A stretch of DNA of 64,000 nucleotides from Hyphococcus sp. (lineage in GTDB: Bacteria; Pseudomonadota; Alphaproteobacteria; Caulobacterales; Parvularculaceae): the NCBI GenBank assembly GCA_965267325.1, contig OZ253943.1, forward strand, positions 2,322,627 to 2,386,626, given 5' to 3'. Every line of letters starts with the position of its first letter. Position 1 is the first letter of the stretch. Below, one piece after another: positions 58,825-63,858 of the stretch. The position numbers and the translations under genes were made by a program. Below the pieces are notes generated by a model, which ran no database searches, was not told the DNA's origin, and was given only the letters and a program-made list of their open reading frames with translations.

Positions 58825-59014
58825 AACTACGCCCCACTCAACTATCTAACCCCGGCCGCCCTATCATGGCCGATGATCACGTTTGTTGGCAATGGCGTCG
58901 CAGGCAATTGGCTGCTCGTTGACTTGGGGCCGAGCCGGCCTATCCTCGCGCGCCGAACGCACACCGTCCCGCCACCCCGAGTTTAGGGCAACGCCTTCAA
59001 ATCACGGAATATTT

Positions 59015-59419
59015 ATGGCCGCTTCCCCCCCTTCATCGCGCCCGCTGTCCCCGCATCTGCAGATCTGGCGGTTTACGGTCACCATGGCCTCGTCGATTAC
59101 CCATCGCGCCACCGGCGTCGGCAACGCGGGTGGCGTATTGTTGCTCGCGGTCTGGATGTACGCCGCGCTTCGTGGGCCGGAGTTCTTTTCACCCCTCGGT
59201 GCGTTTTTGACCTCGCCCTTCGGTGCGATCATCATCGCCGGCTTTGTCTGGTCGCTCTCTTTTCATCTCCTCAACGGTTTGCGCTATCTCTATTGGGATT
59301 CAGGGCGCGGCTTCGCACCGAAATGGGCGCGTGCAACAAGCTGGGCGGTCTATATCGGGTCGGTTCTTCTGACGATTATCATTCTGGTCGCCGGCCACGC
59401 TGCGCGCGGAGGCGCGTGA
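59015..59419 (+). CDS. sdhC: Succinate dehydrogenase cytochrome b556 subunit
   Basis: RPLSPHLQIWR, SITHR-x-TG and FH-x-x-NGLRYL-x-WD motifs. Confidence 0.96.
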   Translation: MAASPPSSRPLSPHLQIWRFTVTMASSITHRATGVGNAGGVLLLAVWMYAALRGPEFFSPLGAFLTSPFGAIIIAGFVWSLSFHLLNGLRYLYWDSGRGFAPKWARATSWAVYIGSVLLTIIILVAGHAARGGA

Positions 59420-59420
59420 G

Positions 59421-59756
59421 ATGTCAAAAAAACACACCTCGACCTTTATCCTTCAGCGCGCAAGCGCGGTTGTTTTAATCCCGTTTGTCGTCTGGTTCCT
59501 GATCTCGCTTGTGGCGCACGCCGGCGACAGTTTTGTCGAGATGCGCGCCTGGCTTGCAAAACCGACGACAAGCATTCCGTTCGCCATCCTGATTTCACTT
59601 GGCGCCTATCATGGCCGCATCGGACTTGAGGAAGTGATCGTCGACTACATCCATTCCTGGGCGAAGTCCGTATTAGTATTTTTAAGCTGGCTCGCGGCGC
59701 TCGCCCTCATTGGCGTCGCGATCTGGTCCGCATACCAACTTTCATTCGCAGGCTAG
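59421..59756 (+). CDS. sdhD: Succinate dehydrogenase membrane anchor
   Basis: LQRASA and H-x-x-IGL-x-x-VIVDYIH motifs. Confidence 0.95.
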
Positions 59757-59763
59757 TTTATTC

Positions 59764-61551
59764 ATGACGCAAAGTTACGAGATCGTCGATCATCAATACG
59801 ATGTGGTGGTTGTCGGAGCCGGGGGCGCAGGGCTTCGCGCCACGCTTGGCGCGGCGCAAGCGGGCCTTAAAACCGCTTGCGTGACCAAGGTCTTCCCGAC
59901 CCGTTCTCATACAGTTGCGGCGCAAGGGGGCATCTCCGCCGCCCTCGGCAACATGTCTGAAGACGACTGGCGCTGGCACATGTACGATACGGTCAAGGGC
60001 TCGGACTGGCTCGGCGATCAGGACGCCATCGAATATCTTTGCAAGCACGCGCCGGCCGCAGTTTACGAACTCGAACACTGGGGCGTCCCGTTCAGCCGCA
60101 CCGAAGACGGCAAAATCTATCAACGCGCCTTTGGCGGCATGACCAAGAATTACGGGGAGGGACAGGTGCAACGCACCTGCGCCGCCGCCGACCGCACCGG
60201 CCACGCCATTCTGCACACCCTTTACGGCCAGTCGGTCAAACAGAACGCCAAATTTTTTATCGAGCACTTCGCCCTTGATCTCATCATGAGCGACGATGGG
60301 GCGTGCCGCGGGGTGCTCTCCTGGGAACTCGACACGGGCGTCATTCACCGTTTCGCCGCCAAGATGGTAATCCTCGCCACCGGCGGTTACGGGCGAACTT
60401 ATTTTTCCTGCACATCCGCGCACACCTGCACCGGCGATGGCAACGCTATGGTGCTGCGCGCCGGACTTCCCTTGCAGGATATGGAATTTGTGCAGTTTCA
60501 CCCCACCGGCATTTACGGCGCAGGCGTGCTCATCACCGAAGGCTCGCGCGGCGAAGGCGGTTATCTCACCAACTCTGAGGGTGAGCGCTTTATGGAGCGT
60601 TACGCGCCAAGCGCCAAAGACCTTGCCTCTCGCGACGTTGTCTCACGCGCCATGACCATCGAGATCCGCGAAGGCCGCGGCGTCGGCCCGGAGAAAGATC
60701 ACATTCACCTGCATCTTGATCATCTCGATCCAAAGATCCTGGCGGCACGCCTTCCCGGCATTTCCGAAAGCGCGAAGATTTTTGCCGGCGTCGACGTGAC
60801 CAAAGAACCGATCCCGGTCCTGCCCACGGTGCATTACAATATGGGCGGCATACCGACGAATTATCACGGCGAAGTGGTGACCAAGCGCGGCGAAGACGCG
60901 GACATAGTGGCGCCGGGCCTTATGGCGATCGGCGAAGCGGCCTGCGTCTCCGTTCACGGCGCCAACCGTTTGGGGTCCAACTCGCTCATCGACCTTGTGG
61001 TTTTCGGGCGAGCTGCGGGCCTGCGCTGCGGCGAGGTCGTCGATGCAAAATCAGCGAATGCGGACCTTCCAAAACAAGCGACCGAAGAAGCACTGGCCCG
61101 GCTCGACAAGTTCCGTCATGCAAACGGCGAAACGCCGACGGCGGAACTGCGAAACGCCATGCAACGAACCATGCAGGAAAACTGCGCCGTTTTCCGCACC
61201 GGCGACGTGCTCGAAGAGGGGCGCGAAAAAATCGGCGAAGTCTACAAGGGGCTTGCCGATGTAGGCGTTTCAGACCGCACGATGATCTGGAACACTGATC
61301 TCGTCGAAACACTGGAATTCGACAATATGATCGGCCAGGCGATCGTCACCATGGAAGGCGCCGCCAATCGCAAAGAATCCCGCGGCGCTCATGCCCGCGA
61401 AGACTATCCCGATCGCGACGACGCCAACTGGATGAAGCACACGGCCGCCTGGTTTGCGCAGGGCAAAGCGACAATCGATTACCGCCCGGTGCACGAATAT
61501 ACGCTTACGGACGAGATCGACTATATCGAGCCGAAAGCACGGGTTTACTAG
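59764..61551 (+). CDS. sdhA: Succinate dehydrogenase flavoprotein
   Basis: VGAGGAG, FAD-binding [33 protein letters not shown] and ESRGAH motifs. Confidence 0.98.
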
Positions 61552-61604
61552 CCAGCGGCGACAGCCCGCCCAGCAATCTTGATATTCCGGGCTTGACCGC
61601 CCGC

Positions 61605-61633
61605 CCCCTCGCCGCAATCCAACCGGTCATGGG
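61605..61633 (+). repeat. Direct repeat, left copy
   Basis: CCCCTCGCCGCAATCCAACCGGTCATGGG; 26/29 identical to 62540-62568. Confidence 0.8.
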
Positions 61634-61746
61634 CGTTCAACGCCGCCATCCGGAATCGTGCAAATACACCTATACATCAATGCGTAATATTGATTATATC
61701 AATAAGTACAGTTTCCATCTCTACAATATAAACAAATATAAATAAG

Positions 61747-62211
61747 ATGATAAATAGCAATTTTCTTTATATTTTATTTTGCTCACTCGTCTCAACGGCT
61801 ATTATTGGGTTCCGAATAGAATCACACCCCGTTTCGGATTCTCTGATCGTTACTCTCGCGTATCAGCTGGGATCGTATTTGTTCGGCGCTTTGTTATTCC
61901 TGGGTTGCATTTTCACTCTACTGCGCATTGCGGCTTTTCTGCCTTCGGCAATGCGTGGTTCCTTTATCGCCATCAGCCTCGTCGCTGCGCTTGCGGCGCT
62001 AGCAAAAACAGTAATGGGGCTGGATCGAACCCTCCACGATTCATACTGCGAAAGCAGACAAGACTCTCTTCCTGCGCAGACAAGTGACAATTGCGGCGTT
62101 CATAGCTTTCTGCAAGATCGATCAATTCTTGAGCCCGGCGGCGATACTCGGCCTCAAGCCGGCTCAAAATCCGTTCTATGTCTCGCGCACCTAAAAACTC
62201 AAATCGAATGA
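61747..62211 (+). CDS. Hypothetical membrane protein in the AT-rich islet
   Basis: 3 hydrophobic segments; AT-rich leader; ATGA overlap with the next ORF. Confidence 0.55.
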   Translation: MINSNFLYILFCSLVSTAIIGFRIESHPVSDSLIVTLAYQLGSYLFGALLFLGCIFTLLRIAAFLPSAMRGSFIAISLVAALAALAKTVMGLDRTLHDSYCESRQDSLPAQTSDNCGVHSFLQDRSILEPGGDTRPQAGSKSVLCLAHLKTQIE

Positions 62212-62531
62212 TCAAAAGCAAGCTGAACCACAGGCTCATGGGGGCGGCCGTCCCGCTCATCACAATGATCATCGGTTTGCTGATTACCAGCGAAACGACG
62301 GTTGAGCCCATTTCAACGTACGGCCTTGCGCTGTTAGTTGTGGCGTTAGTCGCCGCCGCCATCACAGTTTCAGTCAACGTCGAGATCACGAGACAAATTG
62401 GCCGGGCTGATGCTGGCCAGACCGGGTCTGCGAAGAAGAAGCTTATCACGATCAAGCATTTGCTTGAGGGATGCGCCGCTTCGACAACAGTGTGCTCAAC
62501 TTTGCTTGTGTTCTTAATGTACCGCGCTTAG
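62208..62531 (+). CDS. Hypothetical 3-TM protein in the AT-rich islet
   Basis: ATGA-coupled start; hydrophobic segments; stop 8 nt before the right repeat. Confidence 0.55.
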   Translation: MIKSKLNHRLMGAAVPLITMIIGLLITSETTVEPISTYGLALLVVALVAAAITVSVNVEITRQIGRADAGQTGSAKKKLITIKHLLEGCAASTTVCSTLLVFLMYRA

Positions 62532-62539
62532 ACGCCCGG

Positions 62540-62568
62540 CCCCTCGCCGCAACCCAATCGGTCACGGG
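62540..62568 (+). repeat. Direct repeat, right copy
   Basis: CCCCTCGCCGCAACCCAATCGGTCACGGG. Confidence 0.8.
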
Positions 62569-62590
62569 AGCCCAACCCCATACCCCAGGC

Positions 62591-63667
62591 CTACCGCCTG
62601 AAATTCAACGTCGCTTCGACATTTTTCTGAGGCCGAGGCGCGCCGCCCACCGTACGCGGATCGAAGCGCCATTTCGAAATGGCGGCGACGGCGGCGTCGT
62701 CAAAACAGTCGTTTGACGTTGCGGTGACGCGAGGGTTTGTCGGACGACCGTTTACGTTGACGTCAAACAGCACGGAAACGGATTCAAGCGCGGCGGCGCC
62801 CCGTTCGCAGCGGGCGGGATATTTCGGCCCAATAGAACGAACAAGTCGCGCATCGATAACGGTTTCATCCGGCGCAACGGGCGTCGATGTTGCGGGAGAG
62901 GCGAGCGGAGCCGGCGCCGGTTCTGTCGTCGCCGGTGCAAGAACGGGCGCGTCGGGTTCAGCAGCAATTGGTTCGTCAATAATGGCCGGTGCGATGATCG
63001 CCGGTTCAATGACGGGCTCCTCTGCGGGGGCCGTTAATTCATCAAGCGCCGTCGCCTCCGCAGGCGCCGTCTCGGCCTCGCCAACAGGCGCGCCACCCAC
63101 CGGCGGGATCGGGACAACTTCATAATCGGCGGCCGAAACAACACGGGGTCTTGGCGCCTCCGCGCGGATTTCCGAAAGGCGCACCCGCGGACCGTTGTCC
63201 TGGGCGCTTGCGCCGTCAGCCTCATCATTGTTGCCGGCGATTTGGATGCCGATCCAGATGGCGAACGCAAGAATAAGCGCGATCCCGAATAGCGAACCCA
63301 CCTTCACCCCGGAACTGGTTTCATATGCTGGCTCGGGCGCCGCGCGCTTCGGGGTTTCAGGCTCCGGCCGCGCGGCCAAAACCTCGCGCCGGAATTCCGC
63401 CGCGACGGCGTCGGCGTCAAGGCCGAGATAGGCGGCGTAGACTTTAACAAAGCCAACCGCATAGGGCGTCGCCGGCAAACCGGCCGTGTTGCCCGTCTCA
63501 ATCGCTTCAATATGGGCCGGTTTGATCTTGGTCGCCGCGGCCGCTTCCGAGATCTCAATCCCCGCCGCCAGTCGCGCGCTCAGGAGAAACGGTCCAGCGC
63601 CGTCGCCCGCCGCAGCCGCCCGCGAGGCGGAAAGATCGATAATTTCGGCGGATTTCTCCTGAGACAT
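62591..63667 (-). CDS. RodZ-like HTH - TM - Pro/Glu linker - TonB C-terminal domain fusion
   Basis: N-terminal L-x-x-AR...KIK-x-x-HI-x-AIE-x-G...LP...YA-x-GFVK-x-YA-x-YLGLD; C-terminal PKYP...V-x-FDV-x-x-NG-x-P-x-NPRV...FDDAAV-x-AI-x-KWRF-x-P. Confidence 0.85.
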   Translation of the reverse strand: MSQEKSAEIIDLSASRAAAAGDGAGPFLLSARLAAGIEISEAAAATKIKPAHIEAIETGNTAGLPATPYAVGFVKVYAAYLGLDADAVAAEFRREVLAARPEPETPKRAAPEPAYETSSGVKVGSLFGIALILAFAIWIGIQIAGNNDEADGASAQDNGPRVRLSEIRAEAPRPRVVSAADYEVVPIPPVGGAPVGEAETAPAEATALDELTAPAEEPVIEPAIIAPAIIDEPIAAEPDAPVLAPATTEPAPAPLASPATSTPVAPDETVIDARLVRSIGPKYPARCERGAAALESVSVLFDVNVNGRPTNPRVTATSNDCFDDAAVAAISKWRFDPRTVGGAPRPQKNVEATLNFRR

Positions 63668-63858
63668 GCCCGTATTAACCTTACCAACGCAACTGACGTA
63701 GCCGACGCCACTAACTCTAACAGCACCGCCTGTTGCGAAGCATGAACGGCGCCACGGCGTCCGTTCTTTCGGAACTGTCATAAAGCGGTTCGCTCGCCTG
63801 TGGCCCATGGTAACATGAAAACTCGTTCATCGCCCATGGCGAACTTTAAGGAAACACC

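Follow-up and report, generated by a model that had tools for sequence, protein, structure and literature searches.

RodZ proteins, exemplified by YfgA of Escherichia coli, RodZ of Caulobacter crescentus, RodZ of Thermotoga maritima (2WUS) and YmfM of Staphylococcus aureus (3FYM), are bitopic and have their N terminus inside the cell (N-in). They start in the cytoplasm with a helix-turn-helix (HTH) domain of the HTH_25 family, in which an aromatic pair contacts subdomain IIA of MreB, and continue through a juxtamembrane segment and one transmembrane helix, whose outer end bears a conserved Trp, to a disordered periplasmic spacer and a β-domain, RodZ_C (DUF4115). In TonB and TolA, a transmembrane helix is followed by a Pro-rich spacer and by a C-terminal domain (CTD), globular and of the TonB fold, which in TonB binds its partners by β-strand addition (PMC12204202). 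A 64,000-nucleotide stretch of the genome of Hyphococcus sp. (Parvularculaceae; contig OZ253943.1, positions 2,322,627 to 2,386,626), referred to here as the window, contains a gene, the window gene, whose 358-residue product has features of both: an HTH_25 domain, a transmembrane helix, a disordered Ala/Pro/Glu linker and a TonB-fold CTD with two Cys residues, in that order. Sequence comparisons strongly indicate that this gene is a lineage-specific paralogue of a RodZ that has been rebuilt in the whole of this marine family.

The window protein resembles RodZ in its N-in arrangement with a cytoplasmic HTH_25 domain, in the aromatic pair, the juxtamembrane segment and the single transmembrane helix with a Trp at its outer end, and in its disordered periplasmic spacer, while the rodZ–ispG synteny is kept by its paralogue, P0056. 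It differs from RodZ in that the RodZ_C β-domain is exchanged for a TonB-fold domain, the gene lies away from the rodZ locus, the tether is longer, the predicted promoter is of the sigma-54 type, and there are two copies per genome. With TonB and TolA it has in common the succession of transmembrane helix, Pro-rich spacer and globular TonB-fold CTD, the latter with a Cys pair also present in the exbBD-linked TonB of this genome. Unlike them, it has a folded cytoplasmic HTH of 100 residues, a transmembrane helix of RodZ descent without the SHLS motif, and no linkage to exbBD or tolQR. The closest relatives of the CTD outside the RodZ-like pair are in secreted proteins with tandem two-cysteine TonB_C domains (C1:2268503-2273383), which share the same YPxxC...NxCF pattern at 38–39% identity; these proteins differ in carrying two CTDs apiece behind a signal peptide, and have neither an HTH nor a transmembrane anchor.

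A single contig of 3.42 Mb contains the window. The ATG at 63667 is taken as the start of the window gene because 20 aligned homologues begin with MSQEK, and a longer frame starting at 63808 was dropped for the same reason. The N-terminal peptide is specific to the clade, with the consensus MSQEKxAEIIDL, in which A7 never varies across the homologue alignment and I9 and L12 hardly do. The ratio of nonsynonymous to synonymous substitution rates (dN/dS), calculated against four orthologues, is 0.07–0.18 for the HTH, 0.08–0.12 for the CTD and 0.21–0.28 for the linker. Both folded domains are thus under strong purifying selection, and, since these values are well below 1, the open reading frame (ORF) is a real gene and not a chance one. 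An AlphaFold2 (AF2) model built from a 21-row alignment, searches with Foldseek against the PDB (TM-scores normalised to the target), and matches in Pfam and NCBIfam all bear out the layout proposed in an earlier, sequence-only reading of the stretch, namely an HTH_25-like domain, one transmembrane helix, a linker and a TonB_C domain with two Cys residues. The coordinates of the individual elements are listed in Table 1.

Table 1. Features of the window gene and of the DNA upstream of it (positions in the window; pLDDT, predicted local distance difference test).
Feature	Position	Strand	Residues or size	Basis and remarks
Coding sequence, RodZ paralogue with TonB-type C-terminal domain	62591..63667	-	358 aa	ORF, homologue start, dN/dS; stop 62591-62593
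Conserved N-terminal peptide MSQEKSAEIIDL	63632..63667	-	1-12	Alignment; low pLDDT in AF2 model
Cytoplasmic RodZ-type HTH	63380..63598	-	24-96	Pfam HTH_25, PDB sequence matches, Foldseek, residue conservation
Single transmembrane helix	63233..63310	-	120-145	AF2 helix, hydrophobicity scan, conservation
Disordered acidic Ala/Pro/Glu-rich periplasmic linker	62864..63232	-	146-268, 123 aa	pLDDT 38-59, composition
Periplasmic short motif PRVRLSEIRAEAPRPR	63143..63190	-	160-175	Alignments
TonB-fold CTD	62594..62863	-	269-358	Pfam TonB_C, TIGR01352, Foldseek, invariant columns
Predicted sigma-54 (-24/-12) promoter TGGCGCCGTTCATGCTT	63738..63754	-		Motif and conservation; 87 nt upstream of ATG
Conserved intergenic block with inverted repeats ATGAACGAGTTTTCAT, CATGTTACCATG	63803..63836	.		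Between window gene and divergent ech; alignment of close orthologues

The genome contains one true MreB, encoded in an mreB-mreC-mreD-pbp2-rodA operon, and no RodZ_C domain anywhere; a separate canonical rodZ was looked for and is absent. In the window protein itself, Pfam finds none of RodZ_C (PF13464/DUF4115), and TonB_C is present instead. A second HTH_25 gene, P0056, encodes a protein of 271 residues that also carries TonB_C. It lies between ptsP and ispG, directly upstream of ispG, and so has the synteny of rodZ, whereas the window gene is found between sdhA and ech. The product of P0056 is 39% identical to the window protein over the N-terminal 165 residues and 43% identical over the C-terminal 106 residues, including both Cys residues, and its structure model consists of the same two folds. 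Since the genome is devoid of RodZ_C and the rodZ-locus gene encodes the same HTH–transmembrane–TonB_C layout, the fusion represents the family's version of RodZ, and not a lone fusion that coexists with a canonical rodZ, a context that the sequence-only reading had missed.

Word-based searches gave 52 and ~70 clusters with the same architecture, called "TonB family protein" where they have a name and originating from Hyphococcus, Parvularculaceae or unclassified metagenome-assembled genomes (MAGs); the next-best matches are ordinary RodZ proteins with HTH_25 and RodZ_C. An exhaustive profile search returned 244 representatives at E ≤ 1e-30, and nearly all of the best 150 of these 244 have an HTH, one transmembrane helix and a two-Cys CTD. 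The fusion loci from named genomes all belong to Parvularculaceae (Marinicaulis, Hyphococcus, Parvularcula, Aquisalinus and Amphiplicatus) and are of two kinds. Genes of the target type, to which the window gene belongs (~30 orthologues), always follow sdhD-sdhA and a spacer of variable length, are placed tail-to-tail with sdhA, and are head-to-head with ech-(creD)-sdhB. Genes of the paralogue type (~40 orthologues) always lie in the order lysC-ptsP-X-ispG-prfA, where X is the fusion; in Rhodospirillaceae and Acetobacterales, the same position is occupied by a gene for HTH_25 with RodZ_C.

In a sample of 201 genomes of the order Caulobacterales, all 40 genomes of Parvularculaceae contain a match; in 39 of these the fusion is present and RodZ_C is lacking. 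The remaining 161 genomes, from five sister families, match in the N-terminal part only; RodZ_C is detected in 122 of them, although these matches are weak and the Caulobacter control falls below the threshold. No HTH–transmembrane–TonB_C fusion is present in these 161 genomes, nor in 400 genomes spread over the class. Both copies occur in 18 of the 18 genomes of the genus to which this organism belongs, and the window-type copy is fixed in the Marinicaulis/Hyphococcus clade. In four other genera of Parvularculaceae, the rodZ locus holds the one fusion present.

The exception among the 40 family genomes (G091, locus L127 on G091:C90), which represents another genus of Parvularculaceae, has a canonical protein of 454 residues with HTH_25 and RodZ_C at the ptsP-X-ispG position, and no fusion was detected in this fragmented assembly. 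In a tree built on the HTH and the transmembrane helix, with support given by the Shimodaira–Hasegawa-like approximate likelihood ratio test (SH-aLRT), the HTH domains of the family, including that of the canonical RodZ of G091, form one clade (96). The transmembrane motif LWCxWQIT of the locus copy recurs in that RodZ as LWCGWQIT. Because the canonical RodZ of G091 shares the transmembrane motif of the fusion proteins, the domain swap is bracketed within the family. The N-terminal half of the window protein thus descends from the RodZ of the family. It was at the rodZ locus, within Parvularculaceae, that a TonB-type CTD took the place of RodZ_C, and the window gene is a later duplicate. The target-type genes, seven genes of other contexts and the longer of two genes from genus g9 form a subclade with a support of 94. 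In that genus (L128, G181:C4:57000-67000), two divergent fusions of 315 and 612 residues stand side by side between ptsP and ispG, an arrangement suggesting that a tandem duplication may have preceded the relocation of the second copy.

Pfam HTH_25 (PF13413) matches residues 28–88 of the window protein with 67.5 bits (E 9e-19), above the gathering cut-off. The best matches to the N terminus in a sequence search of the PDB are the HTH domains of RodZ (4gqm, 2wus_R and 3fym), and the AF2 model of the domain, in which residues 21–100 have pLDDT values >90, is matched by Foldseek to 3fym and 2wus_S with TM-scores of 0.82 and 0.84, respectively. According to the alignment with 2wus_R and to PMC6946637, Y69 and F73 correspond to the MreB-contacting Tyr53 and Tyr57 of T. 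maritima RodZ, equivalent to F60 and Y64 in E. coli, and mutation of this pair weakens MreB binding (PMC6946637). Y69, F73 and Y77 are located on what is, in 2WUS, the MreB-contacting helix. The contact positions are aromatic in 41 of 41 target-type and 40 of 40 locus-type sequences, as well as in most canonical RodZ sequences; the residues whose loss the sequence-only reading had set against a connection with MreB are therefore retained.

An HTH in this position might also serve DNA, if the window protein were a membrane-tethered one-component signal transducer in which the TonB-fold domain senses a periplasmic or outer-membrane event, such as the exposed TonB box of a loaded receptor, and the Xre-type HTH binds DNA rather than MreB. 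Weak matches of the HTH to HTH_31, HTH_3 and HTH_19, and structural matches to SinR, Cro and ClgR, are compatible with such a role, as are the predicted regulated promoter that the gene has of its own and the 24 genes for TonB-dependent receptors (with Plug domains) in the genome. None of these receptor genes adjoins the window gene, however, and no conserved receptor gene or target operon is found next to it. In addition, the best matches of the HTH in both sequence and structure are RodZ proteins, the N-terminal half descends from the family's RodZ with its MreB-contact aromatics invariant, and DNA binding by the HTH domains of RodZ is not reported in the literature searched. We consider a transducer of this kind quite improbable, and DNA binding by the HTH only a formal possibility.

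In the transmembrane helix, F135 and W138 are nearly invariant, and the region can be aligned with that of canonical RodZ. One hydrophobic segment is present in nearly all of the ~190 members of the fusion family that were scanned. The helix, which contains no His, is preceded by ~119 residues, comprising the folded HTH of ~100 residues and the juxtamembrane stretch, that are presumably cytoplasmic, giving the protein an N-in topology. No S-x3-H motif was found in this helix. Its absence had been noted in the sequence-only reading as a difference from energised TonB; the absence is confirmed, but as an argument about energisation it is uninformative here because the exbBD-linked TonB of this genome also lacks S-x3-H. 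The latter protein, with 207 residues, the Cys pair and a transmembrane helix without the motif, is encoded in an exbB-exbB-exbD-exbD-tonB operon (C1:3002588-3006107), the first exbB of which codes for 469 residues with a long N-terminal extension.

Could the window protein then be a true energy transducer of the TonB type, in which the transmembrane helix couples to ExbBD or to the MotA/MotB-like pair found elsewhere in the window, the CTD pulls on TonB boxes, and the HTH is an addition? The fold of the CTD, its W-R-F-x-P strand and the Pro-rich spacer are TonB-like, and, given the TonB of this genome, lack of S-x3-H does not exclude coupling. Nevertheless, the transmembrane and juxtamembrane regions are homologous to those of RodZ and not of TonB, a folded cytoplasmic domain of 100 residues stands before the helix, and the genome already possesses the exbB-exbB-exbD-exbD-tonB operon described above. 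Moreover, neither exbB, exbD nor motAB is found within 6 kb in ~30 orthologous loci or in the flanks of the gene in the window. These observations make energy transduction very unlikely indeed, and the earlier suggestion that a non-standard motor, such as a MotA/MotB-like pair, could power the protein finds no support, given the missing neighbours and the RodZ descent of the membrane region.

The CTD is matched by Pfam TonB_C (PF03544) over residues 281–356 with 38.7 bits (E 1.4e-9), above the gathering cut-off, and by NCBIfam TIGR01352 (tonB_Cterm) with 35.6 bits. Its nearest sequences in the PDB are the CTDs of TonB (6i97, 6fip, 2k9k and 2gsk). Residues 266–358 are modelled with pLDDT of 92–98, and Foldseek aligns them with the TonB CTDs 1u07, 2gsk_B, 6i97_D and 2grx_C at TM-scores of 0.77–0.83 and root-mean-square deviations of 1.9–2.0 Å, so that failure to fold as TonB_C, which had been named as an outcome adverse to the initial proposal, is not seen in the model. 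Residues W333-R-F-x-P-x-T339 make up a strand that is invariant or close to it. The only Cys residues of the protein, C287 and C321, are both in this domain and invariant in the alignment, and, judging by the model, they probably form a disulfide that joins the short first helix to the second.

The YPxxC...NxCF pattern around these residues is also found in 10 of the 11 other TonB_C domains detected in the genome, among them those of the exbBD-linked TonB and of four secreted proteins, encoded in tandem, that have two CTDs apiece; only a lipoprotein-like protein at 0.173 Mb lacks it. The Cys pair was accordingly rejected as a feature specific to the fusion, being shared with the canonical TonB and the secreted TonB_C proteins. 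The CTD of the window protein shares 45% identity with that of its paralogue, 38–39% with the secreted proteins' second domains and 33% with the TonBs. As its nearest relatives and the Cys pair occur in the same genome, the TonB-type module is native to the lineage. The four tandem genes, ~50 kb upstream of the window, code for 344–355 residues, each with two two-cysteine TonB_C domains, and the two with a clear start begin with an N terminus resembling a signal peptide. The profile search also returned multi-CTD proteins resembling this set, such as P0186, which has three domains, and P0194, which has two.

Between the membrane and the CTD, AF2 predicts residues 146–265 to be disordered. The linker consists of 23% Ala, 18% Pro and 12% Glu, with a net charge of -18. 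The extended Pro/Glu/Ala character attributed to it earlier is evident, including the string EPVIEPAIIAPAIIDEPIAAEP, which starts at residue 217, although the length given then, ~140 residues, was too high. In target-type proteins the linker has a median length of 148 residues (range 75–244, n=33), compared with 36 residues (range 31–48, n=22) in the locus copy within the genus of the organism; the tether of the window copy is about four times longer. A short segment in its first part follows the pattern (P)RV(R/T)L(S/G) throughout the clade, to which it is specific. In E. coli RodZ, residues 138–155 contact MreC (PMC13584716). By analogy with this roughly matching position, (P)RV(R/T)L(S/G) may be considered a candidate motif for contact with a partner, a lead and not a result.

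Upstream of the window gene, TGGC-N8-TGC is found on the coding strand in 29 of 30 orthologues, and the thirtieth keeps GG-N10-GC. The rest of the intergenic DNA around the motif is poorly conserved. The background frequency of the motif is 0.10 per kb per strand, and strict matches to a sigma-54 promoter number 19 genome-wide. A scan for sigma-70 promoters gave no match. The motif is absent upstream of P0056 and is present in 3 of 22 of its orthologues. In a Parvularculaceae MAG, OFTM380 (L067), the single rodZ-locus copy has TGGCGCCGTTAATGCTTC, a motif otherwise characteristic of target-type copies, 128 nt upstream of it. The genome contains rpoN and only three sigma-54 activator-type proteins (C1:564711-566198, C1:1107405-1108466 and C1:412032-413639): an NtrC/TacA-like response regulator has GSFTGA and scores below every equivalog cut-off, a PspF equivalog has GAFTGA, and an NtrX is without GAFTGA. 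In spacing and conservation, as well as in the presence of rpoN and activators, the window gene fits a promoter of the sigma-54 type. The 19 strict matches and the three activator-type proteins suggest a small sigma-54 regulon that includes this gene. The block with inverted repeats is located ~50–80 nt upstream of the -24 element, is kept in close relatives, and is a candidate activator site.

Sigma-54 together with TacA controls stalk biogenesis in Caulobacter. It is conceivable that the window protein is a RodZ-derived scaffold that has acquired a new function off the elongasome, for instance as an envelope tether specific for the stalk, the pole or division in these dimorphic or prosthecate relatives of Caulobacter, with another cytoskeletal partner for the HTH and a developmental sigma-54 activator. 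The conservation of a duplicate with another promoter type and another linker length would agree with this, as would the clade-specific N-terminal peptide and periplasmic motif and the presence of an NtrC/TacA-like activator. Against it, the MreB-contact residues are retained no less strictly than in the locus copy, an indication that the partner is the same, and we regard such a scaffold as unlikely.

The best-supported reading, to which we assign a probability of roughly 0.6, is that the window gene encodes a conditionally expressed long-tether variant of RodZ that exists beside a short-tether housekeeping RodZ; the signal transducer, the scaffold and the energy transducer considered above are less supported. 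In its history, the RodZ encoded at lysC-ptsP-rodZ-ispG-prfA lost RodZ_C, gained the two-cysteine TonB-type CTD of the lineage, and was then duplicated. The window protein would be inserted N-in in the inner membrane and bind MreB filaments via its HTH as RodZ does, with the long acidic Pro/Ala-rich tether carrying a TonB-fold module, braced by a disulfide, far into the periplasm. At that depth, the CTD would capture a partner by β-strand addition or bind peptidoglycan, in a passive linkage not energised by ExbBD. Expression would be conditional, through RpoN and an activator, for which the NtrC/TacA-like response regulator and PspF are candidates. The identity of the protein is strongly supported; MreB binding, the ligand of the CTD and sigma-54 dependence of the gene are inferred.

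A more specific proposal is that of an unpowered trans-envelope coupler, in which the HTH rides on MreB filaments while the CTD extends across the peptidoglycan to capture strands of outer-membrane proteins that resemble TonB boxes. The position or motion of the elongasome would then be coupled to the outer membrane in conditions relayed by sigma-54, and the short-tether copy would perform the housekeeping of RodZ at or below the wall. We consider this version, in its full form, improbable. Several observations weigh against the long-tether RodZ reading. The periplasmic domain of canonical RodZ is largely dispensable in E. coli (PMC6946637), and the swapped domain may therefore have a minor role or one that has nothing to do with the elongasome. 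The window gene is no longer at the rodZ locus, none of its neighbours suggests a part in cell-wall synthesis, and the alignment places a His where T. maritima RodZ has Lys36. Furthermore, the sigma-54 promoter is a motif prediction only, and the quick tree does not settle the timing of the duplication.

The surroundings of the window gene have peculiarities of their own. The sdh operon is split, with sdhC-D-A parted from sdhB by the window gene, on the opposite strand, the enoyl-CoA hydratase gene and creD (window 58883-61551 plus L021 3486-6633), an order kept in ~30 Parvularculaceae genomes. Two direct repeats of 68 nt, 78% identical (61577-61644 and 62512-62579), flank a low-GC islet (GC 0.48–0.53) that contains two ORFs rich in transmembrane segments (61747-62211 and 62178-62531) with no match in Pfam. 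The second repeat ends 12 nt after the stop codon of the window gene. The spacer between the window gene and sdhA looks like an insertion hotspot, since its length varies from 9 bp to ~6 kb in relatives.

In the literature searched, HTH_25 and TonB_C were found together in no paper, none of the listed matches for RodZ and TonB concerns a fusion of this kind, and a 2025 survey of the evolution of TonB and TolA mentions neither the HTH nor RodZ; an HTH–transmembrane–TonB_C design of RodZ is not described there. Databases annotate the fusion proteins only as TonB family or HTH proteins, and the label "TonB family protein" hides what is the only RodZ of the family. This is a real and clean family-wide replacement of a domain, with a regulated paralogue. 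The periplasmic role of RodZ is poorly understood, and here a whole family has naturally swapped that part for a TonB fold, a fold known for the capture of β-strands, while one clade has kept two copies with a fourfold difference in tether and with different types of promoter. The family thus serves as a natural experiment on three points: the task of RodZ's outer end, the reach that it needs, and the time at which it is needed. If it is true that the TonB-type CTD binds partners in the outer membrane or the wall, these proteins would directly and physically join the actin-like cytoskeleton to the outer envelope.

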